Shown here: positions 5,001 to 49,554 of the stretch, one piece after another | Layout of the letters: the number at the start of each line of letters is the position of its first letter | How positions within the stretch are numbered: position 1 is the first letter of the stretch | Assembly: GCA_000002435.2 (NCBI GenBank) | Contig: CM018792.1 | Direction: 5' to 3' (one strand) | Length of the DNA: 64,000 bases | Source: Giardia intestinalis | Lineage: Eukaryota | The notes under the pieces: model-generated | What the model was told of the DNA's origin: nothing | Database searches by the model: none | What the model saw: only the letters and a program-made list of their open reading frames with translations | Made by a program: the position numbers and the translations under genes

Positions 5001-5454
5001 GATAGAAGTACTTATTCTTGAGGGAGATGAGATATTGCAAGTACATCCTCAAGTCCTCTTGGTTAGCAGAAGCGATATAATCAACCAGGGATATGCAGCT
5101 CGCCATTTCGTCTGATAGTTTAAAGAAATCGGCGTGCTGCATAGCCTGATCGTACTTGAGTTGAAGCTGGTCTCTAGCCTTGCAGCGCGCAATCACATCC
5201 GAAAAAACTCCCATTGACTTTTCCGTGAGAGCACTAAACTTCTCGCTATGAAAGTCGATGGACTTCGTAAGAGATATCATTCTGTTAATGCACGTGAGGA
5301 GAGAGGAGAAGTCAACGAATTTCTCCTGAACATCTCGGGCTGCCTCTTCTGCGTTGCCTCGCTTCTTCTGCTTCAGTTGGTTAAGCTGGTCGTTCACACT
5401 ATCTCTGGACCCATCACATCCCAGTGCCTTCAGCTTCTGAACGACTGGATCCAT
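2047..5454 (-). CDS. Large hypothetical protein of 1135 aa. No domain recognised.
   Basis: The ORF is an uninterrupted 3.4 kb. The ATG at 5454 is preceded on the coding strand by the A-rich initiator caaattaaaaacagg...ATG. Codon usage matches the neighbouring genes. Confidence 0.75.
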   Translation of the reverse strand: MDPVVQKLKALGCDGSRDSVNDQLNQLKQKKRGNAEEAARDVQEKFVDFSSLLTCINRMISLTKSIDFHSEKFSALTEKSMGVFSDVIARCKARDQLQLKYDQAMQHADFFKLSDEMASCISLVDYIASANQEDLRMYLQYLISLKNKYFYLDMKAASKVELLSTVLTQLGQQNAILGENLNMFLTRIDIKKLEDSNISSIFGQNAVATKLVPENSQILNKKLMDFAPRFETLLYKFIVTEEIAFDPKISLSTFGKLCSYGYTFSGNFKDVFSDAIVSDVFPFSLSLTTALPWDVRYGLVQRISFTGMAGLLSEEILRLILLIIYNQIVFVFSLNYICIECTLDDVEPTLRSPPDSAQSTLDSPQRPPMSPLSNAGSSISAIKSGLISSEPSPIPKQLSSSLVSPGGTQQNIYCWSDFLLYVGLRPKELIRTQNMCYIGPILDQKQIQIPFAKELPLFEQIGDSSFSSLILQLLHMSSPISTLLASKLQKPVDFYFATMRYFIDGLGFLVRTIPGLTQGIVAYIVNLLLKQIAQFVTTRRTDIIIFNSICLDALNAGYHLLDVLGTLGAGYSRISKGAFQFISSLEASVLKSYLFTAQSVARSIGTCSVVNPSTILREGTLPVCSVDSPEQTPQMMSLSPTLKMAKGQSFSADVASDIKGNAFIPLATTVRNDAAYLAYDYGILRHVYSIYTGAIIKQWDQRASNNHISEQSISLCILAILSLLEHATLFVSRMKSSTVEDLIRAFLTIIQGYMGGAIFSLHLLNEYQSKTSSFELGKTRIGVLSDAQQPNQSNNSLHSLNFEALDKSFYRKLFAQHTAQSIEASLQQLITDSFIVQRNLLPLLASKFDINIELSASASLLGQLFLGVSLLDELQYSIETASSYYSADAIMEIRSELDTSQLVDFSLHKTRQSYAFARNCFSAENKPADYANLYSFDESGAFFRACQSTFLVLNTATECYLEFLLYSVFSEIDELVLDIRKPKSIALSGVTYSSLNQRVAAALHKEATETIVNPGSIEFTPLINQIFSVGCLHNVLVAVSRIKNKLVQNKLIDCSSMWLGVRERMVSYLKYCTCDVLPLLKETNYISFVLIFNFLFKVFSNREMLESCNEVSEIQSTLELVSQTLQLKFKRLLEA

Positions 5455-5553
5455 AGAAAGGGCCTGTTTTTAATTTGTTCAAGACTGCAGGAACAAAGTA
5501 CTTTATTCACTAGGCTAGATATGACATAGACATCAGTTACCAGATGGTAGTGC

Positions 5554-7872
5554 CTAGTTTGCTTCCATTGCCTTAAGCGTCTCATCTGGAAGACCGGTGA
5601 ATATCTGAACTTCGGGTTCCTTGATATTCTTGAGACTTTTCTGATGAAGCATGGTCTTTTTAAACTTCCCTATTTCTTCAGCGTGTCCTGGTACGTTTTT
5701 GAAGGAGGATGCGCTCGAAGCGTGTGAGTGAGCAACAGGGGTAACCTTCCTTTGCTCATGCGTAGCATCTGCCTCTAGGGAAGACTTTCCATCTAGTTTT
5801 GCTGCTCGCCGTGCGTCCCGCTGATATTGGGAGACATCAGAACCAGTGTTTCGTGCCACCCTTATTCGTGCATCATGTGCCGCCTTTTCCCTGGCAATTG
5901 CCTCTGCATTCAGACCTCCATGAAGAGCATCTCCACATTTTCCTGCCCCAGCCGCTAAGCCCAGGGCCTGACCATTGTTACTGTTGCCACTGCTGCCGAT
6001 AGCTGCAGGCTTTGATTGACTCCCAGAGCTGGCGGCCGTTGGTCTCTGCTCGCTTAAGATAGCAGCCACCTTAGCGGCAGCTGAGTTTGATTCTACTTTC
6101 TTGAGAGAGGGATTAGTCTTCCGCTTCTGGCGGGTATCTTCTTGTCTATCACGGTGGTTGTTGCTGGAAGTCGCATATTGTTCCTTATATTCGCGACCGC
6201 GACTTACGTGCGACCGTTGATTAACTGATGGAGCTGGAGCAGGTATACCACTGTTTAAAACATCAGTTAAAGGCGGCTGAAGGATTTGCTTTGCCCCGTC
6301 AGTTGTATCGTATTCGTGGTCCTGGCCAGGCTCAGAAGAGCGAGACTCTATGCGTGAATGGCCTCGAGAGGAGTGGCGAGAAAGACTATCTAGACCTATC
6401 TTGTAAACCCCGTCGTGGAAGTCAATGAACACAAACTGAGTAAGTAATGAGCGTGATATCTTTCGCATAACACGAACGTTAGGGTCCCTCTTATCTTCTC
6501 TTGCATTGGTGCTTACGCTCCTACTCTCAGGATTACTAAATAACTCACTGGGAGAACGAGGCCGTCGCAACCCCTTCCGCTCTTCAAATTCCTTCTGAAG
6601 TCTCATGCCGACGCCAGCTCCAATCAATCCTACCTCTGCCAGTGATGAGGCTGGTCGCGGTGCACTCCTCCCCCTCTCCCGCTCCAACTCAGACATGGCT
6701 GTAATGGATGCTAGAGACGACTTTGTGCTGTCAGAGCGACGAAGAGACTTGGTCGGAAGCCGCGGCTCAGAGACACTTCGTGTCGGTGTGCCGACATTGT
6801 TCATAGCTAAAGTGAGAACAGATTCACGATCCCTGCTGCCTTTCTCATTGATGGTAATGCGATCTCTGGATGCACCACTACGCTGCTTTTCAGCGTCTCC
6901 CCACCTAATAGTGTTGCCACCAGTAGCGCCAGCAAACATATGTGGCGGTGAGCGCACAAAGCTAGCTACATTCAATAACCCCTTAAGGATGTCATCACAG
7001 CTAGGACGCTTATTGGGAAGCTTTGATAAGGTTCGTTCTAAAATCGCTGTCAACACAACAGAGTGCTCGTGCTCATGGTATTGTTTAATTATGTTACGAC
7101 TATCGGTAAAAGACTCGTATTTCTGAATCTTATTCATTATAGCGAAAAAGTTGCCACCAGAAAAAAGCGGATTGAAAGTTAATATTTCGTAAAGAACACA
7201 CCCTAACGACCAGATGTCTATCTTGTTGTCATATCCCTCCTCATTGAAAACCTCTGGCGCCATGGTCTGAATGGTGCCAATTGCTGTATGATCCATGTTG
7301 ACGAGTTTGGGATCGATGTGCTTGCATGTGCCAAAATCCGCTAGTTTGACCATCATAATTTGGCTCAAGGGGTCCCTGGGAGACTTCAGCATCACTAGAA
7401 TATTCTTTGCGGAGATATCCCTATGGATGAGGTTGAACGCATGGAGATATGCAACCCCTGAGACTATTTGTACAAATAAACTAAAGGCCTCCTCTATGCG
7501 AAAATATGCTCCCTTTTCTTTACGGTGCATTATAATTTGATCTAATGAACTATCAGCAAGATCCATCACTATGATCATGGTATCCGACCCATTGCCGAGA
7601 CCCATATCGTTAGGGGCATGCATAAAGGACTCTCTGAACTTGATGATATAATTGTTCTTGAAAGTAGAATGTAGCTCCACCTCTTTGGCCGCGTGCTTCT
7701 TCTCTTTAGCTGTGTATTGCTCATAGAAGATTTCCTTTATACAAACCTTTTCAGTGCTTCCTTCTAGATTTGCGCTCCAGCACCGAGCGTATGTCCCCGA
7801 CCCAATGTCTTCAATTAAACGATATGTCTTTCCAGTGTTGGGAGAGGTGATGGCACATCCCGCCTCAAGCAT
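5554..7872 (-). CDS. Ser/Thr protein kinase, NEK-like, 772 aa. The kinase domain is N-terminal and is followed by a long Ser/Arg-rich low-complexity tail.
   Basis: Kinase motifs are present: a glycine loop IGSGTYARCW, VCIKEI with the catalytic Lys, HRDISAKNILV, DFGTCK and GTIQTMAPEV. The initiator is aaatttaaaATG. An AGTGAAT signal lies downstream of the stop. Giardia is known to have a large NEK expansion. The family assignment is from motifs only. Confidence 0.75.
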   Translation of the reverse strand: MLEAGCAITSPNTGKTYRLIEDIGSGTYARCWSANLEGSTEKVCIKEIFYEQYTAKEKKHAAKEVELHSTFKNNYIIKFRESFMHAPNDMGLGNGSDTMIIVMDLADSSLDQIIMHRKEKGAYFRIEEAFSLFVQIVSGVAYLHAFNLIHRDISAKNILVMLKSPRDPLSQIMMVKLADFGTCKHIDPKLVNMDHTAIGTIQTMAPEVFNEEGYDNKIDIWSLGCVLYEILTFNPLFSGGNFFAIMNKIQKYESFTDSRNIIKQYHEHEHSVVLTAILERTLSKLPNKRPSCDDILKGLLNVASFVRSPPHMFAGATGGNTIRWGDAEKQRSGASRDRITINEKGSRDRESVLTLAMNNVGTPTRSVSEPRLPTKSLRRSDSTKSSLASITAMSELERERGRSAPRPASSLAEVGLIGAGVGMRLQKEFEERKGLRRPRSPSELFSNPESRSVSTNAREDKRDPNVRVMRKISRSLLTQFVFIDFHDGVYKIGLDSLSRHSSRGHSRIESRSSEPGQDHEYDTTDGAKQILQPPLTDVLNSGIPAPAPSVNQRSHVSRGREYKEQYATSSNNHRDRQEDTRQKRKTNPSLKKVESNSAAAKVAAILSEQRPTAASSGSQSKPAAIGSSGNSNNGQALGLAAGAGKCGDALHGGLNAEAIAREKAAHDARIRVARNTGSDVSQYQRDARRAAKLDGKSSLEADATHEQRKVTPVAHSHASSASSFKNVPGHAEEIGKFKKTMLHQKSLKNIKEPEVQIFTGLPDETLKAMEAN

Positions 7873-38812: not shown

Positions 38813-41800
38813 ATGGTCTACGCGCAGCTTAACCTACAGACAGAGCGCGTCAAGTGCGTGGTTTTTCACCCAAAGCGTCCATGGGTTATTTTTTCGTGCC
38901 AAAACGGCGTTGTCGAGCTTTGGGATTATGTGACCAAGGCTCTCATCGACAAGTTCCGTGCCCACAACTCTCCTGTTCGCTGCATCGACTTTCACCCAAC
39001 TCAACCACTCTTTGTTACGGGAGGAGATGATGCGACGATTAAGCTCTGGTCGTTGAGCGATCGTAAGCTTCTCTATGTCTTCACGGGTCACACAGACTAC
39101 GTTCGCAGCGTGTTTTTCCACCCAGACATCCATCCGTACATTCTCTCTGCATCAGACGACAACACTGCGCGAATTTGGAACTGGCAGAGTCGCCAAAGAG
39201 TTGCAGACCTAGTTGGTCACCGCGACTTGGTCATGTGCGCCCGCTGGCATCCCACAGAAGACCTAATTGTTACTGCGTCTATGGATGCCACCGTCCGTGT
39301 GTGGGACATTAGCTCTATTCGAACGAAGGGGGCTACAGGCAGATTCCAGCAGCTAGCAATGCAAGCTCTCTCCTTGCCTCATACCATAATTAGTAGTTCT
39401 GTGGTAGGCACAGGCCATGGCAGAGGCGTTAACTGGGTCTCATGGATGCCAGACGCCGGCAACTACTTCCTTTCGGGGTCTGACGATACTAAGTGCAAGC
39501 TTTGGCATCTGACTCGTGGCAGCTCTACTGGCCTTTCATTGCTGGGACCTGATGCTCTTCTTTATTGCTCCTCTACCATAGAAAAGCACACGGGTAACGT
39601 TTCTGTAGTTGAACCATCAGTAAGGAACGTCATTCTTACTGCCGGTGTCGATGGTAGGCTTTGTCTCTTCTCATTGTCCAATCGTGCTTATATAGGTAGC
39701 ATTACGGTGCACGACCTGGATCCGACAGCAACCGTATCAAGCCTCGCCCCATCTGATCATAAGATGTTACGCTGGTGGTCCCTTCGAGAACATCCGACCA
39801 TCAATATGTGGGCCGCAGGACATGACGGTGGCTTATGCATATTCTCCACACAACTGGAAGAGTCAGTAGGAACAGTGGAGGGGGACACATGTTACTTCAT
39901 CGATTCTCATAAGCTCATCTCGACAAATCTGAAAGCCATTGTCGCTGATGCTAGCACAAAGCCAACTGTCAAGGTTGAGGCTTCTCTTATCAAACAAACT
40001 GCCAGGAGCGGTGCATTCGGCTCATCTGTCGTTGTGGTAGAGCCAGTGGATATCATAGTTATGGGAAACCCGTTTCCCTTCATAGTCTCGTACTGGGACG
40101 GAAAGAACAGGTTCATTGTGCCGTACGCAACCTTGAAAGACTGCTCTCCAAGCAGCTATGATCCGAAAAATGTTATAGAAGTCTCTAGCAATGTGGCCAG
40201 ACTATCTGCCTCACACGTGGCGTGGATACAACGGTCTAGTGAAGGCCTAGTTCTCGCTGTTGCCTTTGTGGGTACAGGGGGGCTGACAATTAAGACTATG
40301 CACCCTGTTTCTTCCACAGTCCTCTCTGTCTTCCCAGGAAGAACGGAGTCTGAAGTTATCATTTCCTCTCCAACGAAGCTATCTCTTTACACCTTGAGCA
40401 ATCTTTCGACAAACCAGCCTATTGTCCTACTCAAGTCGCTATCTGTTCCTCAGTTAATTCAGCACGCTTACTACTCTAATGACCAACAATATCTCGCAGT
40501 GGTAGCTCACGAGTTCGTGGCTCTTATCAATATGGATACGTTTACTATTAATACGTCTCAAATGTCGCATACTGCGATAAGTCGCGGGGTATGGGGGCTT
40601 ATTGGCCGTGGACTGGAGGAGTCTGAGCAGCGCACCGCCAATGCTTTTATCTACTCCACCTATACGCACATATGTTATATGTTGCCATTCATCTCACCAA
40701 CTGCTTCGGAAGCAAATCGACTAGCCGCCCATACTCAAAAGATATCTAGGGTGACTAAGCCTATTGCTGGGATTCTGACGTCGCTCAATAGGCCTATTTG
40801 CATAGTCTCTGCATCCGGCCAGGTCATTGTTTACTTGGATAGGCACGAAGGGCTAAAGTGCATTGAGTTTGACTCCAGGGTTGCAGGACTGGTCCAGGCT
40901 GTTGCGTCTGGCAGAGCGGACGACGCCTCGATCATGCTGGCTCGGTTACAGAACACTCCCCTGGGGCTGTCTCTCTCAAAGACTTTGCTGGATATGAATA
41001 GGCCTGACTTGGCTCTCGCCGCGCTCCCTAAAGATGAGATACAGATCCGTGACGAGCTTGCTCTTAACTTGGGTCTTCTGGACCATGTCTGTCATGACAC
41101 AAAGTCTCAATCTGCCAATAGCTACCACATTTGGCTTCGTATTTTTGCAGAGTCTCTTGCCCAAGGACAGGGCCTCATCGCCAGGGACGCCCTTCTAAAA
41201 ATAGCTCGCATAGACCTCTTAGGCTTTCTGCTGTCTCTATATAATACTACGCTATCTGGGTCGCTAAGCAAGCTGGACTATAGTCGCCTATCTACTTCTT
41301 CGAGCATTCAAGAATGTCTGAACGCTGCAGTATTAGTAGGGGACAAATCCCTGTTCCACTCGACTCTGCTTCGCGCCGGGCTCTCAATTCCTGCTAAGAT
41401 ATTTGGGGAGGCTAATGGGATAGACACTCCCGTGGAGCAGGCGAGCGCACCACCTGTTTCCCCAACAAAGACGATTTCTATAGGCAAAAAGATCACCGTG
41501 CCCTTACGCAAGGGAAGCTTGCGAAACTACCCCACCACCTCTTTACTTAATACATACGAGTCTCTTATGCGAGAGATTGCCTCTGCCGCCGAGCATGAAC
41601 TTCCAGCTGAAGGAAAGCGCTACCAAGGATGGGGCAGTGACGATGACGACGTTGACTGCGTGTTGCCGGCTGAGCCGGTTAAGGGCTCCGTACAGATGAC
41701 TTCGGGACCATCTGAGCCACTGGATGCAACTCAGGCATCTGAGGCAGCTGCCGATTCTGCAATTGTAGTTCCTTCTCATGGAGTCAACGTAGTTTCAAAG

Positions 41801-42646
41801 CATCCTCTTCTTGGCAGCAATAGTGAAAAGGAGGAATTCCTTGCCTCCAATGGCATTTTGTCAGAGAAGTCGCTATCCATTCTAAAGCCTCATATTGACA
41901 AGCTTGCTTCGCATAACAAGAGGCTGCAAGAGGTCACCCCCATGAAGGGACTATCTATAGTTGTTCCCATCTCAGATTCATTGAGTAGTGTAGACACGAT
42001 AGATACTATGCAGCGAGAATTTAGCTCGATAATGGAAAAGGTTGATACAGGTGCATTCGCAGATGCACTGGCTCCTCTGAGGTCGCTCCTACAACGAGCT
42101 CTTCTAGCCTGCACCTTTGCAGGGCCAAATGACCACGATGACCTTTCTACCCTTGTGCTCAATAGCACGCTGTATATATTGGCGTTATCCTGTGAGCTGG
42201 AGCGGCGCGCAACCGAGAAGGTTGCTACTCCGGAGCGTGTGTGCGAACTTTATGTGCTTTTCTCCCTTCAGAATATGAAGACAAACCACGCGCTGTTGGC
42301 ATTGCGCTTGGCTATAAGCGGTACAAAGCGGTACGGCGCGTATTCGCACTGCAAACAGCTAGCCCAACGATTCATTCAATTAAGCCAGCTTCCTGAGGCG
42401 CGTTCTCTGGATGTCTGCCAATCCTACTTACCCAAGGCAAAGAAGATGGCTGCATTAGAGGATGAGGATGTGGTGCAACTGAGCTTCAGTGCTGCCGATC
42501 AGGACACGGTCATGCTCTGCGCCGTTTCATACAAAAGCATCAAGGGACCCCACTGTATTTGTAGCGCCTGTAAGACGTGTGCATGCGATCAATATCTAAA
42601 GGCCAGTTGCCCTGTCTGCGAGCTTGGCACCTTTGTGAAGGCCTAA
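38813..42646 (+). CDS. COPA: Coatomer (COPI) alpha subunit.
   Basis: The N-terminal WD40 block [69 protein letters not shown]...[18 protein letters not shown]...[26 protein letters not shown] is collinear with the alpha-COP N-terminus. The protein is 1277 aa, a typical length. The C-terminus is Cys-rich: [12 protein letters not shown]...CPVCE. Confidence 0.9.
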   Translation: [1277 protein letters not shown]

Positions 42647-42808
42647 GCCCTCCTCCTTACACCCATTACCCCATCAAGGACAGGAGCATTTACTTCAAAC
42701 AGCCCTGGACAGGCTGAAGTGAGGTTGCTGAGCAGCTAAGATCGTCTGGTTGTGCCAACGTGCCAGACCTGTGTAGCGGGAAGCCAGATAAGGAATGCGC
42801 CAGAGTCA

Positions 42809-43003
42809 TTAGTCGCTAGACTCGCCGTCTCCGTGCTGCTTATCAAATTTGCGCATCTCCTCAGAGGCGTAGTTGGTGGAGTAAATTCCATCTTGGTCTG
42901 CTTCTGTTCCATCTGTGACAGGATTTTCATCGACGTCCACGTCTTCAGTGGCAGTTTCGGGTTTTTGCGTGGGCTTCGACCTCGGTTTCGGCTTCGACGC
43001 CAT
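42809..43003 (-). CDS. Small acidic protein of about 64 aa from the internal ATG, a paralog of the adjacent small gene. C-terminal motif ...KFDKQHGDGESSD.
   Basis: The track ORF (90 aa) begins at an ATG placed directly after the upstream gene's TAA. The first 26 codons are AT-rich and promoter-like (attaaagttccatgtaattattcc), so the start is more likely MASKPKP. Confidence 0.45.
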   Translation of the reverse strand: MASKPKPRSKPTQKPETATEDVDVDENPVTDGTEADQDGIYSTNYASEEMRKFDKQHGDGESSD

Positions 43004-43081
43004 TGAGAATTTAGGACTAGACTTTATGGTTGGAATAATTACATGGAACTTTAATATTCCATGTCTAATTGGCACAAACAT

Positions 43082-43393
43082 TTAATCACTGCTCTCGCTG
43101 GAGGTGTGCTGCTTACGAATTGTTTTATCATGAGTGTTCATTCGCTCTTGAAAAAGCAGGAGCTCCTCGTTGGAAAAAGAGGCCCGATCTACATCATAGC
43201 GAACTGGTGTACTTAGGGCGATGACGTCCATTGCCTTCCTCTGCTCTTCTTCCATCATTTTGGTGCGGGCAAAGGGGGTGGCAAGAGACCGCTCCAACTC
43301 TGCGCGACGTTGTGCTGCTATGTAGAGTTGTCTGCGCCGCTCCATACGCGCCTCGTAATGGCGATATTGGTCAGCATTGAGATCGTTGTCCAT
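43082..43393 (-). CDS. Small charged protein of 103 aa with C-terminal motif ...DKTIRKQHTSSESSD.
   Basis: The initiator is caaattaaaATG. The C-terminal 20 residues share the pattern E-x-M-...-DK-...-KQH-...-ESSD with the downstream small ORF. Confidence 0.55.
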   Translation of the reverse strand: MDNDLNADQYRHYEARMERRRQLYIAAQRRAELERSLATPFARTKMMEEEQRKAMDVIALSTPVRYDVDRASFSNEELLLFQERMNTHDKTIRKQHTSSESSD

Positions 43394-43554
43394 TTTAATT
43401 TGGGCCTCTAACTTTCGTTAATTGAAGCCAGATTTAAAGCTAGGAATAAGCGTTGCTAAAATATTTCCATGACAGATGCTCCTGTTTCTGCAAGCGTCTT
43501 TAGCTGGTCAGAAGTGTTTTTGCTTCTGCAGCTGTTAAACTTGAAAGTTAAAAA

Positions 43555-46500
43555 ATGACCGAAAGCGTTGTCCTACTGTCTCGTACTCTTCCGTTGTTCG
43601 TAGAAAGAGAGAATAAGGTGATCGATACAACCTTTAAGCTGGTCACGCATCTTGATGATTCACTTTTTATTGAAATCATCAAGGCCAATACGCTGTGGCG
43701 AGCCATTCCATATGCTCGTGTCACTCACCTATTGCTTTCAGAAGACACTGAGTCTGTCCAGCCATACTATAAAGCGCGCGAAAATACTCCGTTGTTCTTC
43801 TTTACGCTTTCGACGGATTCTGATGCTTTACATTATATTATTTCAAACAGCCACGATGACATCAATTTCCTCATTGAGCTTCTGCAACTACTTCATACCC
43901 TTCCTTACCCCGGCCTCCCCCGAGCCTTGTTTGAAGCAGCTATTAGAAATCTTTCACCAGGCGTTTCAGATATCTACGATCCACAGCGTCTGCCCGACGT
44001 TTCCATGTCGCCAACACAGGGATATAGTCAACTAATAAGCTCGTTTAAGCAAAGCTTTTATTTTCAACAGATTGTCTATCAGTATGGATCTGGGCAACCC
44101 ACTGCACAAGCCCTGAAATACATCTCCTATTGGCCCGTTATTGCCATCTTCATGGCAAGCTGCCTGGTCCTGCTCGCCACGGGTCCCTATTCAAATCAAT
44201 CTTACACCATCCTGCACCTTTTGTCGATGAGAACCCAGAACTTTAACTTTCTTCTATCTCACATCAATACAATAGTATTTTACACTGCACCTGATGAGAC
44301 ACTGGGCTATATCGAAGTCATACAAAGCTCTTCTCTTTACAAGGATCAGGCCATTGTATTACACCTTAATATGTCGTATGTAATTAACTACATGCTCCAG
44401 TTTAAGGAATTGTCACGCTTCCCGCCAAGCTACAGAGTCCCCGACCTTCTATCAGTACCGCTATTTGCAAGGAACAGAGTGGATGTCCAAGAATCGTCTC
44501 TATTTTCTTTATACACAAAAGGCGTGTTTTGCTCCCTCAAGGGTAGGCTCAGTGACATACTCACAGAATTATCTGATACTATTCCTGCGTATTTGGCAGC
44601 ATTGGAGCCACTCTCTATTCTCATACGATCCTCAGTACTGCGTGGGTTTACTCTTGTCCCCGACAAGATCCCCTCTCTATGCCTTTCGAATATCCTGCAG
44701 GTTATGGAGACAATCTTGAACACCTTGACTTCACGCTATATGAAACTGACAGGCCACACGGAACATACCTCACCGCCCAGTGGTGGGCTTGACGACCACG
44801 AGGAGGGCCGCATTTCTATCGTCTTCACTCCCGGCCTGTACGAGGGAGACATCTCGCACCTTATTATCAGCGACGAGTACTCCAAGGCACTTGTCCTTCA
44901 GCACATTCTAAGTTCGCTGTTCCTACCCTCACACCAAAAGGAGATGCCGGTATATTACAGAAAAGCCCCACTACTACCCTCTATCATTAAATATATAAAT
45001 CCCGACGGGACGCTCTCAGACCCATATCGCCTTGATATGACCAAGACATCGAGCGACATACTAGATGGCATTCCGCTGTCGCCGCTCATCAAGGGATCCA
45101 TTCTTTATTTTATTATTAAGGCAGTGGCAGAGATCATAATGTCGCCGTCGCCAAATGTGCCTGATGCAGTTAAGATGTTACTGGCCAAGGCGACTGTCTC
45201 TGTTCGAATAAACTACGGCCAGCCATCTGAAACAGCCAGTGGTCACGACAATATATTAACAGAATTTGTTCTCTCACCCGATAATTCCGGTGGAGGGGAT
45301 GCATCCTTGTTCCTGGACGCTCCTGGAACTCTCTGCCCCCTTCTGCACTTCCTCGTCGCTTCTCAGAATATCAACGAGGAGTATGGGTTGTTAAGCGTTT
45401 TTGAGTATTGGACGCGGATTGGTATCAAGGGCTATCCTCCTGCAGTGGCCCTGGCTCCGGATTTCTTTGCACAAGCAGCACAGAGGAACTACCTTCAACA
45501 GACACAGAATCTTCTTGATGATATTAACCAGATGGTCAGCTTCTCTTCTACCGTTGAAGAAGATTCGGCATATAGGTATGTACCGCCCGCTCCAGTTATC
45601 TTGCTCGACATTAATGTCCTACCCAGCAGCAGACAAGCCTTCATAAACCTCGGGCAGGACATGACGTCAATTCGAACGGAGAATGAGCGCTGCATCAAAG
45701 AATATTATGCAAAGCACGCAGATACCCGCAGAGAGGAATCCATTGAGGATCTTATCAACATATCTGACATGTTCTATTATTTCATTCAAACCAATTCTAT
45801 TGATGACGTGTTGAAGAGAGGGGCACTTTGTGACATCTCTTCTTTAAACGCAGATTCTGCTCAGCTTGCTGCTCCATCCAGCGCTGACGGCACGGATCTT
45901 AAGCAGAAGTTCACACCGGTCCTGCACAAGGTGTCTCATGATCTTATACATTTTACTGAAGCAGCAGCTTATATCTCAGAGATAGACATCCACAGCAACA
46001 TAGGCGTGCTAGACACCACGGGGCGATATTTGGGCACAGATATAGAAGTGCAGACACCTGCAGATTCTGTACGGGACCAGGCTCCCCTGTCGATGAGCCT
46101 CACTGACCAACAAGACACAGCTACTCAGGCCAACTCCCTGCTTAGACCCATCATTCCCTCCCTATCTCTTACTGAGACATCCTTTGCCAATGTTCTGGAA
46201 GTCATTACCGTTGCAGGCTTACTCAGATCGATTCTCCAGCATCTTACTGGGTTTGCACGATACTTTATCTCTTTAACCCTCAACGTCTTCTACCTCAAGC
46301 TGCAGTCTCTTAGCCTTCATCCGCTGATAGACGTCGAAAAAACTCTACGCTTTGCGGCCAGCTACTTTGCATCGGTTGCCCCGGATGCCCTTCCCCAGGA
46401 CTATCTAGATTCTCTCAGTCATGATGTCTTTGCTTTGGTACAGGGACGCATTAATTTCAAGGACACAAATGTGCCCGTTTCACGTCGCCAAAGCGAAATC

Positions 46501-49500
46501 TTTAATGCCTCCAAGGGCGATGATCTTAAGCCCAATCTGCTCACCAAGCAGATTTCTTCAACATTCAATCTTGATATCGATCTACTAAAAAAGCAATCAA
46601 TATTTTTTGATGTGCAATATGGGATTGAAAATCGGGATAGCTTTTACGAAAACCCCCGTCTCCTCATCGTACCGCACTATCGCATCATGCTTGGTATTTC
46701 TAAATATGTATTTGATCATCAGAACGCCCCAGAGCGTCTCAACGATGTGGAAATCGACAAGCTACTCTCCAAATATATCAACGAAGAAATGCTCAAATAC
46801 GTTAAGAGGAGCGATCATACATATAGTGCTACTACCAATGTCAAATTATTTGAGAAAACGCTTGAGGGTTTGCTGAAAACCGCATACAATTGCGTGATAG
46901 ATAATGGGATCATGCATCTTTTCAGATACGATTTTGATAGCAACGCGCGCCTGCCCAGCCGGCGCTATGTATCCCCAGACCTCATCCACTCTGTTCGAGG
47001 GGTTAAGGTTCCTTGGACAACCTTGCGGAGCATGTACCCAGAATTTATTTCCATACCGAATGCCGGTATCCATGTACCAGTTAACAAAGAGGTGGCGGAC
47101 ATGATCACACTGGATCTTGGGTTTGTGCCGCATCACGGACGCGCCTCTCTGATGGCCTTCTATATGTCCATCCTTCCTAGCTACATTTCCCAGCTTCGAA
47201 ACAAGTATGTTAATGTGCTCATACAGCCATCTGTTGATAGCATTGAGCACCCCTTCTATCCCTGTGGAGAGCCGAGTACATACAAGAAAAACCAGCTCCC
47301 TAAGAGCTATGAGCTAGGTGGGATTTGGCTTTCATCTATTCTGCACCATATTTTCAACATATCTCGCATCCTAATAACATCAGCAGCATACAACGAGCCC
47401 GTAGTGTCCATCGCGCCCCTCGATAGAGATGAAAAGTGTTTGATACTCCGCTGTATTGAAGTGTCCTTCAGTCACGTTGATTCAGATAAACTGCTTGGCT
47501 TGCCAGATACCCGGTCGATACGAGAAGATAATGATACTGTTAATGCACCTCTCAATTGCTCCCCAGAGATCTCTCTCGTCATCTCCGAAGTCCTAACGCC
47601 CGGCCTCGTCTGCGAAATCATGTCGTTGATGGGTGATTCAGAATCCCCTGGTCTCCCACGCTCGGCTCGCTACACAAATCCATTCCATTCCCTGTTTACC
47701 TTTAGGATACTTTCGGTTGAAGCTCTTTTTGGCCACATCTGCACCAAGCTAAAGCTTCATACTTTACTGCCAGTCATCACCTTCTTACGGAACACTCAGT
47801 ATGCTTTAACAAATAGAAACTCAGCTGAGGTGGAACTAGAAGTGCCTTCTGTATTTGCTCTAAATGCCCACGACTCTCTAGATTTGTTTGCCAAGGTGTG
47901 TATTAGTGTGCTACGAGCAGAGTTTACAAATATCCCAGATCTGAGTGCGTCAACAAGGCGCCACTTGATCCGCACCATCAACTCCTGCCCTTTTTTGGTC
48001 ATTGGATCTGAAGCGAAAACTGAAGCACTTGTTTGTGCTGGAAAGGAAAACAGGAACCCGGTCAGTGGCAGGGTGTGCTTCAACATAGGCACGTCTAAAG
48101 CTAACAGAGATATCTATAAACGTGTGCGCGCTCTGTCACAGACGAGTCAAGATCGGTTTGTGATGCTGAACACGTTCTTGGCGGAAAAGCCTCTTTCTCA
48201 CTACAGTATAACACTCTTTACAAAGGTACCACTAGACAATGGCTATTGTATAGGATTTGGTTACATAGTGGATAAAAGCATTAGCGACGTGTTCGTTATT
48301 GACACTCCGATCTTGATGTGCATTATTATTCCCGATAACTTTGACTGTACTGCCCCTGAGCTATTCGACAAGAGCCGCTGCCTCATTAACGCCCCCGTTG
48401 TTGTCACGTCTAGTCCCTCATTTATTGAAAATACGACCTTCTACGTCTCTATTTCACAGGAAGACATCAGAAAGGCTAACGAAAGCATCACTGCGGAGCT
48501 ATCGTACCCCATAGCCAATGTAGACGGAACGATCTCTCAGCTTAGATACTTGGAGTCTAGAGTGCTTTCCTCAATTGCTGAATCCATCCAGGCACTGCCT
48601 GCAAGGCTCCAGGCCCTGAGGTATAGCTGCAGTGACATACAGAGACGTCTGGGGGGCGAGATTGACGTGTCCCTCCTTCCTATGTCCTTCTCCCTCGGTC
48701 AATTCAGTACCAAAAAATACGTTGAGACAGCATCCATGCTTAGCTTCACGGAAACTCTTGCGTCCTCTCTCTTTGCTGCAAATGTCCTCCCAATCAGCAT
48801 AAATTACGCCCTCTACCTCACTAATCAAGAGAAGATCCGGTTCCAGAAGAAGCCAGACAATACAAATAGAAAGCATATTCCTATCAATCTGATGCTTCTT
48901 GGACCAGAGGAATGCATACTGCCAGAATCTATCTCACCACTTGTGTTCATAATCAAATTGCTAAAAACGGAGCCTCTCGAGAAGCTTGTACAGATGATAG
49001 ACAAAGATAATACGGGCAAAATTCTCTTAGCACTAGTGCCCATACTCTTGGTAGATAAGTTCAGCCTCCAATTTTCTAATGACTCTTTAGAAGTCAGCGA
49101 GAAAATTAAACAGCAGGCCGAAATCGAGAAGCAAAACAGACTAGCTGAGACCACGTACTCCCTCTTTGATATGTCAATAATTGAGGAGCATGTCAGGAAT
49201 ACGGTGAACGAGGTATTCGGTAAAAACTTTGGCCCCACAAAAAGTACAGATGCGGCAGCAGACGAGCGTGTCTATGGTCCATATCTATATTTAGGATGCG
49301 ACCCCACGATATGGAAGCGGCTATATGATGCAATCCAGCGCAGTGCTCACAAGGCAGCCTTTAATTCGCTGGTCACAACATGCAATCCAGCGACGATTGA
49401 GAAGGGTATGTCGAGCAACAAAATGGTTGCGTCTATGAGTCTTCTGATTGGGGCCAGGTTGAGGTATGACATGTCTTTGGGGAAGGATGGCCTGATAGAC

Positions 49501-49554
49501 TACATTAACTGGAAGAAATCGTACTGCAAGCCTATGGAGAACGCTACATATTGA
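43555..49554 (+). CDS. Very large hypothetical protein of 1999 aa.
   Basis: The ORF is 6 kb uninterrupted. The initiator is gaaagttaaaaaATG. No family motif was recognised. Only short antisense ORFs overlap it. Confidence 0.75.
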   Translation: MTESVVLLSRTLPLFVERENKVIDTTFKLVTHLDDSLFIEIIKANTLWRAIPYARVTHLLLSEDTESVQPYYKARENTPLFFFTLSTDSDALHYIISNSHDDINFLIELLQLLHTLPYPGLPRALFEAAIRNLSPGVSDIYDPQRLPDVSMSPTQGYSQLISSFKQSFYFQQIVYQYGSGQPTAQALKYISYWPVIAIFMASCLVLLATGPYSNQSYTILHLLSMRTQNFNFLLSHINTIVFYTAPDETLGYIEVIQSSSLYKDQAIVLHLNMSYVINYMLQFKELSRFPPSYRVPDLLSVPLFARNRVDVQESSLFSLYTKGVFCSLKGRLSDILTELSDTIPAYLAALEPLSILIRSSVLRGFTLVPDKIPSLCLSNILQVMETILNTLTSRYMKLTGHTEHTSPPSGGLDDHEEGRISIVFTPGLYEGDISHLIISDEYSKALVLQHILSSLFLPSHQKEMPVYYRKAPLLPSIIKYINPDGTLSDPYRLDMTKTSSDILDGIPLSPLIKGSILYFIIKAVAEIIMSPSPNVPDAVKMLLAKATVSVRINYGQPSETASGHDNILTEFVLSPDNSGGGDASLFLDAPGTLCPLLHFLVASQNINEEYGLLSVFEYWTRIGIKGYPPAVALAPDFFAQAAQRNYLQQTQNLLDDINQMVSFSSTVEEDSAYRYVPPAPVILLDINVLPSSRQAFINLGQDMTSIRTENERCIKEYYAKHADTRREESIEDLINISDMFYYFIQTNSIDDVLKRGALCDISSLNADSAQLAAPSSADGTDLKQKFTPVLHKVSHDLIHFTEAAAYISEIDIHSNIGVLDTTGRYLGTDIEVQTPADSVRDQAPLSMSLTDQQDTATQANSLLRPIIPSLSLTETSFANVLEVITVAGLLRSILQHLTGFARYFISLTLNVFYLKLQSLSLHPLIDVEKTLRFAASYFASVAPDALPQDYLDSLSHDVFALVQGRINFKDTNVPVSRRQSEIFNASKGDDLKPNLLTKQISSTFNLDIDLLKKQSIFFDVQYGIENRDSFYENPRLLIVPHYRIMLGISKYVFDHQNAPERLNDVEIDKLLSKYINEEMLKYVKRSDHTYSATTNVKLFEKTLEGLLKTAYNCVIDNGIMHLFRYDFDSNARLPSRRYVSPDLIHSVRGVKVPWTTLRSMYPEFISIPNAGIHVPVNKEVADMITLDLGFVPHHGRASLMAFYMSILPSYISQLRNKYVNVLIQPSVDSIEHPFYPCGEPSTYKKNQLPKSYELGGIWLSSILHHIFNISRILITSAAYNEPVVSIAPLDRDEKCLILRCIEVSFSHVDSDKLLGLPDTRSIREDNDTVNAPLNCSPEISLVISEVLTPGLVCEIMSLMGDSESPGLPRSARYTNPFHSLFTFRILSVEALFGHICTKLKLHTLLPVITFLRNTQYALTNRNSAEVELEVPSVFALNAHDSLDLFAKVCISVLRAEFTNIPDLSASTRRHLIRTINSCPFLVIGSEAKTEALVCAGKENRNPVSGRVCFNIGTSKANRDIYKRVRALSQTSQDRFVMLNTFLAEKPLSHYSITLFTKVPLDNGYCIGFGYIVDKSISDVFVIDTPILMCIIIPDNFDCTAPELFDKSRCLINAPVVVTSSPSFIENTTFYVSISQEDIRKANESITAELSYPIANVDGTISQLRYLESRVLSSIAESIQALPARLQALRYSCSDIQRRLGGEIDVSLLPMSFSLGQFSTKKYVETASMLSFTETLASSLFAANVLPISINYALYLTNQEKIRFQKKPDNTNRKHIPINLMLLGPEECILPESISPLVFIIKLLKTEPLEKLVQMIDKDNTGKILLALVPILLVDKFSLQFSNDSLEVSEKIKQQAEIEKQNRLAETTYSLFDMSIIEEHVRNTVNEVFGKNFGPTKSTDAAADERVYGPYLYLGCDPTIWKRLYDAIQRSAHKAAFNSLVTTCNPATIEKGMSSNKMVASMSLLIGARLRYDMSLGKDGLIDYINWKKSYCKPMENATY

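Follow-up and report, generated by a model that had tools for sequence, protein, structure and literature searches.

Two adjacent, genus-restricted microprotein genes of Giardia with a shared C-terminal module

Analysis of a 64,000-nucleotide stretch of the genome of Giardia intestinalis WB (assemblage A), hereafter the window, identified a pair of real, conserved and genus-restricted microprotein genes whose products share a C-terminal module. The first of these, GL50803_11956 (gene 1; minus strand, 43082..43393), was present in the list of open reading frames (ORFs), specifies 103 amino acids followed by TAA, and is an exact match to XP_001709694. The second, GL50803_11955 (gene 2), is annotated as a 90-aa ORF (minus strand, 43081..42809) identical to XP_001709693; comparison between lineages establishes that its product is one of 64 aa rather than the annotated 90 aa, specified together with its TAA by positions 42809..43003 of the minus strand. 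The gene models themselves are held with high confidence, and the overall explanation, which combines two genus-restricted genes, a 64-aa gene 2 and a shared C-terminal module, is considered likely. The pair constitutes an ordinary finding with modest new detail and no bearing on a long-standing open question, the new points being the correction of the WB gene model, the recognition in G. muris of an overlapping ortholog that lacks annotation, the assignment of GMRT_jh012 as ortholog of GL50803_11956, and a redefined shared motif.

The gene pair and its relatives within the genus

The C-terminal end of the 103-aa ORF reads ...RMNTHDKTIRKQHTSSESSD and is followed by TAA, the next triplet after which is the ATG (43081) that opens the 90-aa ORF; the latter ends ...EMRKFDKQHGDGESSD and is likewise followed by TAA. 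The first-pass annotation of this DNA had described the two C-termini, the TAA and succeeding ATG and the relevant coordinates in these terms, and on re-checking its description proved exact. Coatomer alpha (plus strand, 38813..42646) is the left neighbour and convergent to the gene pair, while the divergent right neighbour (plus strand, 43555..49554) codes for a 1999-aa protein, for the orthologous loci of which no Pfam hit is on record. GL50803_11956 and GL50803_11955 are both annotated as 'hypothetical protein', and the records of these genes or their orthologs among the annotated hypothetical proteins of Giardia (additionally GLP15_88 and GLP15_87 in P15, GL50581_329 in assemblage B, and GMRT_jh012 in G. 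muris) assign them neither a function nor a family and do not relate gene 1 to gene 2. A literature search found no paper in which either gene is named, and neither was among the entries examined in the supplementary tables of a long-read 3'-end study and an encystation atlas.

The locus was gathered and aligned from WB and four further lineages of the G. intestinalis complex (P15 and three others). Across these five lineages, dN/dS was 0.02–0.09 for gene 1 and 0.01–0.09 for the 64-aa part of gene 2, values for which dS was near-saturated, and the comparative evidence establishes both ORFs as genuine, separate protein-coding genes under strong purifying selection.

Word-index protein searches conducted with both genes returned Giardia sequences only. 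When 1.8 billion representatives were searched exhaustively with a gene-1 profile, one real additional relative emerged, the 127-aa GMRT_jh012 of G. muris (E 5e-5), which is newly assigned here as the ortholog of GL50803_11956; a second G. muris-like gene-1 sequence, 79% identical, was recovered from a Logan assembly. A 4583-aa trypanosomatid repeat protein from Porcisia hertigi, 30 stretches of which were matched to gene-1 residues 2–49, was rejected as reflecting charged coiled-coil bias, not homology. None of five sequences had a Pfam match at E up to 10, PDB sequence and profile searches gave no credible match, Foldseek comparison of the gene-1 model with the PDB gave no fold match, and two JGI metagenome scans, one per family profile, returned zero relatives. 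By these database comparisons, which for gene 2 comprise the word-index search and the two metagenome scans, both genes are established as confined to the genus Giardia.

In G. muris, GMRT_jh012 adjoins coatomer alpha, synteny thus being retained, and the +1 frame contains an ORF ending ...GGIYSANYAAEELNRFDQQHDGNSSSD whose orthology with gene 2 is plain; gene 1 and gene 2 are arranged alike in the second G. muris-like genome. In every genome compared, namely the five G. intestinalis lineages and the two of G. muris type, the genes lie head-to-tail in the same orientation, and they have been neighbours adjoining coatomer alpha since before the split between G. intestinalis and G. muris. They thereby provide a clean example of lineage-restricted microproteins kept adjacent through the whole history of a genus.

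The G. muris gene 2 is 51 aa long and shares 56 nt with the end of gene 1. No gene is recorded between GMRT_jh012 and coatomer alpha, and the 51-aa protein is absent from the protein collection and is therefore unannotated. Comparison of the two G. muris-type genomes gave a pN/pS of 0.06 for the non-overlapping part of gene 2 and of 3.4 for the 41 codons upstream of its ATG when read in the same frame; the upstream extension is consequently not coding in that frame, and gene 2 starts at the ATG that gives 51 aa. The DNA of those same 41 codons read in the gene-1 frame gave a pN/pS of 0.06. Within the 56-nt overlap, pS was reduced in both frames from about 0.6 to about 0.25, as would be predicted of dual coding. 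The start of gene 2 thus lies inside gene 1, with AAAAAAAAAGTAC before the ATG; the A/T-rich stretch immediately upstream of this ATG reads AAAAAAAAAGTACATG.

Overlap with a neighbour, by 1–327 bp, has been reported for 9.5% of G. muris genes, as has an A-rich initiator ahead of start codons (Xu et al. 2020, PMC7641422). Since overlapping neighbours are so common in that genome, the overlap of gene 1 and gene 2 is typical of it, and both the 56 nt and AAAAAAAAAGTAC fit its pattern; the present case differs in that the downstream partner is unannotated, the overlap exceeds the 21-bp average, and constraint is measurable in both frames. GMRT_jh012 itself is expressed in vivo (FPKM values in Table S1b of PMC7641422). 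The unannotated 51-aa gene that overlaps it, and that is under selection by the substitution data, is a new point, and the pair offers an example of genome compaction in which a 78-nt spacer in WB corresponds to a 56-nt dual-coding overlap in G. muris.

Candidate transcription signals around the pair

Gene 1 is immediately preceded by an A/T-rich context, CAAATTAAA (minus strand, 43394..43405), that may act as an initiator, and CAAAT[TA]AAAATG at its start is conserved in five lineages. Conserved A/T-rich stretches occur just upstream of the ATG of each gene (CAAATTAAAATG for gene 1 and CAAATTCTCAATG for gene 2), A-rich stretches of up to 13 nt before start codons being a general promoter feature in Giardia (PMC7641422).

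The sole canonical poly(A) signal downstream of the gene-1 start is AGTAAA (minus strand, 42689..42694), 114 nt past the gene-2 stop codon. It is conserved in the five G. intestinalis lineages at 104–117 nt from the first base of that stop codon, and in the same five lineages no AGTRAA occurs from the gene-1 start to the gene-2 stop; in both G. muris-type genomes the only such signal is AGTGAA, 5–9 nt past gene 2. All seven genomes therefore conform to one pattern, with no canonical AGTRAA between the genes and one after gene 2. The poly(A) signal of Giardia is AGURAA, with cleavage most often occurring 13–15 nt after its first A, and AGUAAA or AGUGAA is used by only ~60% of Giardia genes (Bilodeau et al. 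2022, PMC9014877). The canonical signal after gene 2 in every genome agrees with that description, as does the Logan contig L019, whose end at 42679 is separated by 15 nt from the first A of AGTAAA and so falls in the 13–15 nt range. Measured against the same norm (PMC9014877), gene 1 is unusual in having no canonical signal of its own, and the ~130 nt predicted for the 3' UTR of gene 2 in G. intestinalis exceed the median of 59 nt.

On the basis of these motifs we infer the promoter and poly(A) assignments for the pair, according to which gene 2 would be expressed from its own cap-proximal start, and the gene-1 mRNA would either end at a non-canonical signal at its stop, where AGTGATTAAA is invariant, or continue to the shared AGTAAA. 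Ribosomes in Giardia initiate next to the cap.

The latter outcome for gene 1 would amount to a single transcription unit, in which its mRNA extends across gene 2 as far as the shared AGTRAA and long and short 3'-co-terminal mRNAs result in coupled expression. This is a reasonable possibility, albeit one that falls short of an even chance. Its principal support comes from the placement of canonical signals, missing between the gene-1 and gene-2 stops in 7 genomes and conserved after gene 2, to which may be added that in G. muris any gene-1 mRNA contains the start of gene 2, this being located within gene 1, and that Logan contigs from ten runs cover both genes, with one of them stopping exactly 15 nt beyond the initial A of AGTAAA. 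Against this, ~40% of Giardia genes use other signals (PMC9014877), such that AGTGATTAAA may be a variant signal generating a very short 3' UTR for gene 1; the lack of the hexamer from 78 nt corresponds to chance expectation; and the Logan contigs also cross the divergent intergenic region, and hence are no proof of mRNA structure. A single unit of this kind would bear on expression alone and would not conflict with the explanation preferred here of two genus-restricted genes with a shared module. Co-terminal transcription, with the same less than even standing, is the only part of an earlier suggestion of coupling between the two ORFs to survive, and does so for a different reason.

The C-terminal module common to both proteins

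The two proteins have no common fold in prediction. The AF2 model of gene 1 (mean pLDDT 77) consists of three helices (residues 3–36, 40–61 and 75–96) plus a disordered acidic serine tail, whereas that of gene 2 is mostly disordered with a single C-terminal helix (residues 45–57), the layout of the latter protein being a Lys/Pro-rich N-terminus, an acidic disordered middle, the C-terminal helix and an ESSD terminus. Nor was any whole-protein homology detected between gene 1 and gene 2: the N-terminal two thirds are unrelated, and only a C-terminal module aligns.

In WB, 7/10 of the last 10 residues are identical between the two proteins (BLASTP E 0.013 in a single comparison). The window contains 122 ATG-ORFs with a length of 60 aa or more, and of the 7381 pairs that these form no other has above 5/10 C-anchored identities or a C-terminal 4-mer in common; because the pair is unique in this respect the resemblance in WB is beyond chance. 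On the aligned lineages, however, the 7/10 figure is partly specific to WB and P15 and overstates the conserved similarity: gene 1 of other lineages has KLH, NSH or KSH in place of KQH, together with DSSD, which leaves 4–6/10 matches with gene 2, and the KQH..ESSD match in gene 1 is limited to assemblages A and E.

Profile comparisons located the conserved similarity elsewhere. Using G. intestinalis profiles alone, hhalign aligned only the last 10 residues (E 0.064, probability 0.9%); with G. muris included it gave E 0.003 and a probability of 10% over ASFSNEELLLFQE / TNYASEEMRKFDK, pairing gene-1 residues 71–83 with gene-2 residues 43–55. Direct comparison of gene 1 and gene 2 of G. muris gave a BLASTP E of 5e-4, and a column-shuffle test of the two family alignments gave p 0.004 for ungapped and 0/1000 (<0.001) for gapped alignment. 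The best ungapped profile–profile segment, also identified as the shared helix motif with hhalign, comprises residues 71–84 of gene 1 (ASFSNEELLLFQER, or VRYAARELECFDRR in G. muris; minus strand, 43142..43183) and residues 43–56 of gene 2 (TNYASEEMRKFDKQ, or ANYAAEELNRFDQQ in G. muris; minus strand, 42836..42877), the latter inside the only predicted helix of that protein. It takes the form [FY][SA]x[ER]E[LM]xxF[DQ] followed by an acidic serine cluster, and in both models falls within a predicted helix with hydrophobic positions at i, i+5 and i+8.

The distance from motif to acidic serine cluster in G. intestinalis is 14 residues in gene 1 and 4 in gene 2. The gene-1 tail (TSSESSD; minus strand, 43085..43105) is conserved as [ED]SSD in the G. 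intestinalis lineages, and that of gene 2 (minus strand, 42812..42823) is ESSD-COOH, or SSSD-COOH in G. muris. In G. muris gene 1 the equivalent cluster, EESSESD, is internal and followed by 23 more residues, which is where the overlap with gene 2 lies. What is conserved in common between the two proteins, as judged from the aligned families, is thus the helix motif plus acidic serines and not DK..KQH..ESSD-COOH.

These results modify the first-pass annotation, in which the genes had been presented as tandem paralogues sharing a C-terminal DK..KQH..ESSD motif with conserved ESSD termini. Of that proposal, significant similarity over a short C-terminal module is upheld once G. muris is added; paralogy in the sense of whole-protein homology is not, and the DK..KQH register gives way to FSNEELLLFQ/YASEEMRKFD. 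The conserved terminus, similarly, holds for gene 2 throughout the genus but fails for gene 1 of G. muris with its internal ESSESD and 23 residues beyond.

The resemblance might alternatively be discounted altogether, gene 1 and gene 2 being regarded as unrelated orphans with no shared function whose C-terminal likeness reflects chance, or convergence of acidic serine tails and a generic amphipathic helix. This view, which is unlikely though far from negligible, is favoured by the low hhalign probabilities, 0.9% over 10 residues for G. intestinalis alone and just 10% even with G. muris, by the modest extent of the module (~14 residues plus a low-complexity tail), by the variation of the KQH part among lineages, by the unrelatedness of the remainder of the proteins, and by the non-terminal position of the gene-1 cluster in G. 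muris. It is countered by the finding of only one such pair in 7381, by the independent recurrence of the aromatic-[SA]-x-x-E-[LM]-x-x-F-[DQ] register in the G. muris pair, by the outcome of the column shuffles, and by the direct adjacency of the two genes, as tandem duplication would predict. With a shared module accepted, as is preferred here, it would have arisen most economically through an ancient tandem duplication confined to the 3' end of one gene; convergent evolution of a short linear motif is possible.

As to what the module may do, the shared helix would serve as a docking helix and the acidic tail as a phospho-acidic tail of the casein-kinase-2 (CK2) type, both microproteins thereby binding the same partner. 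In the CK2 consensus, an acidic residue stands at +3 (or +1) from a Ser/Thr within acidic surroundings. By inspection, both tails contain Ser/Thr residues so placed: D/E occupies +3 relative to T97 in TSSE (gene 1, WB), to the second S of SSESD (G. muris gene 1) and to the first S of SSSD (G. muris gene 2), and the serines of ESSD have D at +1 or +2. Partner docking through the helix and a phosphorylated tail is advanced tentatively, as a proposal with clearly less than even prospects; were the module a real docking module, it would provide a handle on the partner of two anonymous parasite proteins.

In size, acidity, disorder and possession of a single conserved amphipathic helix near the C-terminus, the proteins are similar to the small disordered helix-docking regulators 4E-BP and DSS1/Sem1. 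The Y-x-x-x-x-[LM] of gene 2 superficially recalls the eIF4E-binding YxxxxL-phi motif, and F-S-N-E-E-L recalls the DSS1 helix F-S-N-Q-L, each being of use as a lead only. Both candidates were rejected. For 4E-BP (PF05456), the four Giardia sequences concerned are YASEEMR, YAAEELN, YAARELE and FSNEELL, in three of which the phi position is R, N or E, while the one with a hydrophobic phi is without Tyr; there was no Pfam hit. For DSS1/Sem1 (PF05160), there was no Pfam hit at E up to 10 with five sequences, a PDB profile search at E up to 10 contained no DSS1/Sem1 chain, and the Trp-acidic motifs are absent, gene 2 having no Trp.

A more elaborate scheme would combine these elements into a two-microprotein module whose members compete or cooperate for one partner by way of the shared helix and phospho-acidic tail and are expressed from nested 3'-co-terminal mRNAs, with the gene-2 promoter in the spacer or, in G. 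muris, within gene 1. It is regarded as rather improbable; if true, it would represent operon-like coupling in a eukaryote with cap-proximal initiation.

The spacer and the start of gene 2

Between the stop of gene 1 and the 64-aa gene 2 lie 78 nt (minus strand, 43004..43081) that are annotated in WB as codons 1–26 of GL50803_11955 and begin with an ATG found only in WB. This spacer is 69% AT as compared with 48–49% in the ORFs, and between WB and P15 has a pN/pS of 0.51 as compared with 0.07–0.09 in the ORFs. Across lineages it measures 77, 78 or 99 nt and carries indels of 1 and 21 nt; in L001–L004 a 1-nt indel offsets the frames of gene 1 and gene 2 by 2 and is accompanied by extra stops, and in L005 the spacer contains an in-frame stop. 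Taken together, the inter-lineage comparisons establish it as non-coding, and it is probably the promoter/initiator region of gene 2. The prior proposal that the first 26 codons of the 90-aa ORF are AT-rich, non-coding and promoter-like is accordingly borne out by base composition and by the indels, frameshift and in-frame stop of other lineages.

The same observations bear on the juxtaposition of TAA and ATG, which had been thought to leave room for stop-codon readthrough or coupling. TAAATG occurs in WB only, other lineages having TAAATA, TAAATT or TAAAGA, and the abutment is a WB-specific accident without mechanistic meaning. A fused polypeptide or translationally coupled ORFs, whether arising by readthrough, by termination–reinitiation at TAA-ATG or by frameshifting, is extremely improbable. 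It is true that in WB, P15 and L006 the two ORFs are in one frame with the gene-1 stop codon as the sole stop, and that G. muris has an A9 run just upstream of the gene-2 ATG from which removal of one A would fuse the frames. Nevertheless, TAAATG is restricted to a single lineage, the frame is broken in L001–L005 as above and in G. muris, where gene 2 is in the +1 frame, and the spacer evolves near-neutrally, with indels, at 69% AT. As the spacer is non-coding, TAAATG is confined to WB and the frame is not kept, conserved readthrough or reinitiation at TAA-ATG is excluded at the level of sequence comparison. Frameshifting or transcriptional slippage at the A9 run is likewise unsupported: the second G. 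muris-like genome has only A6, and that interrupted, and the constraint on both frames of the G. muris overlap fits two separate products.

Two other interpretations of the spacer were considered and rejected. A hairpin formed by ACATGGAA/TTCCATGT, assessed as a possible conserved element in RNA or DNA, gave a z of -1.97 in WB only and values of ~0 or positive in four other lineages, and by eye there was no Giardia-type GTATGT ... CTRAC..AG of the kind expected of an intron joining the ORFs, the spacer varying, moreover, in length and frame.

The ATG of the 64-aa gene 2 and its context, AAATTYTYAATG, are invariant across lineages, as is the start ATGGCGTC; the context of this internal ATG, CAAATTYTYAATGGCG, is conserved and resembles CAAATTAAAATG ahead of gene 1. 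A strain-specific N-terminal extension, making gene 2 truly 90 aa in WB, can be put aside as highly improbable, for although the ATG at 43081 is the first in an open frame and the ORF is called in some assemblies in variants of 88 aa, the extension lacks a conserved start, is hydrophobic and rich in AT, is not kept as protein, and could be translated only from a transcription start within or right at the end of gene 1, while the internal ATG is marked by the conserved context AAATTCTCAATG. The non-coding behaviour of the spacer, the conservation of the internal ATG and its context, and existing annotation in P15 and assemblage B are the grounds for a 64-aa gene 2, and they vindicate the model preferred at first pass, in which the genes are small and separate, at 103 and 64 aa; the start is invariant and the spacer is broken elsewhere. 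By this comparative evidence the 90-aa model in WB is established as a longest-ORF annotation artefact, 26 codons too long. The practical yield is therefore one of annotation, in that GL50803_11955 should be given as 64 aa; assemblage B already has gene 2 annotated at that length, and P15 at 60 aa.

Start and end of gene 1

Gene callers had lengthened gene 1 (GL50803_11956) in two other lineages of the G. intestinalis complex, to 132 aa in L005 (283..681) and to 137 aa in L006 (3001..3414), and neither N-terminal extension was conserved; the conserved start, CAAAT[TA]AAAATG, yields a protein of 103 aa. At the opposite end of the gene, the element CAGTGATTAAA (window 43082..43092, minus strand), which covers the final codons and stop, showed no nucleotide difference among the five G. 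intestinalis lineages, although third positions around it vary, and could be a non-canonical poly(A) signal of the AGUGAU or AUUAAA type.

Inverted repeat and convergent 3' ends

The AT-rich spacer separating gene 1 from gene 2 (GL50803_11955) contains a perfect 8-bp inverted repeat, ACATGGAA-N8-TTCCATGT (window ~43038..43062, minus strand), in which a single compensatory change was recorded in the P15 lineage; the corresponding fold outperformed shuffled sequences in WB only (z = −1.97), and was not kept in the remaining lineages.

Downstream, gene 2 converges on the coatomer-alpha gene across an intergenic stretch at 42647..42808. No canonical AGTRAA signal was found on the plus strand past coatomer-alpha before that at 42880, which lies antisense within gene 2, only an AGTGAG, at 42718, preceding it. 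With the poly(A) signal of gene 2 located at 42694..42689 on the minus strand, the positions of these motifs indicate that the 3' UTRs of the two genes would almost certainly overlap in antisense.

Arrangement in G. muris

In G. muris (L020), a 219-aa ankyrin-repeat gene (5235..5894) is interposed between the gene 1 ortholog, GMRT_jh012, and the large upstream gene, whereas in G. intestinalis gene 1 directly adjoins the divergent 1999-aa gene, a difference which indicates a local rearrangement. The 3'-terminal 56 nt of GMRT_jh012 are overlapped, in the +1 frame, by an unannotated 51-aa ortholog of GL50803_11955 (L020 6329..6484, plus strand; CM016925.1, ~614,835-614,990), and synonymous divergence within the overlap was lower in each of the two frames. 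The same overlap, again with a 51-aa ortholog, was present in a second, G. muris-like genome (L021 569..724). The 51-aa protein of the latter locus (P0030) shared its 90%-identity cluster with Parabacteroides AsmA-like proteins of 1072 aa only, a grouping which looks like a clustering artefact of the protein collection.
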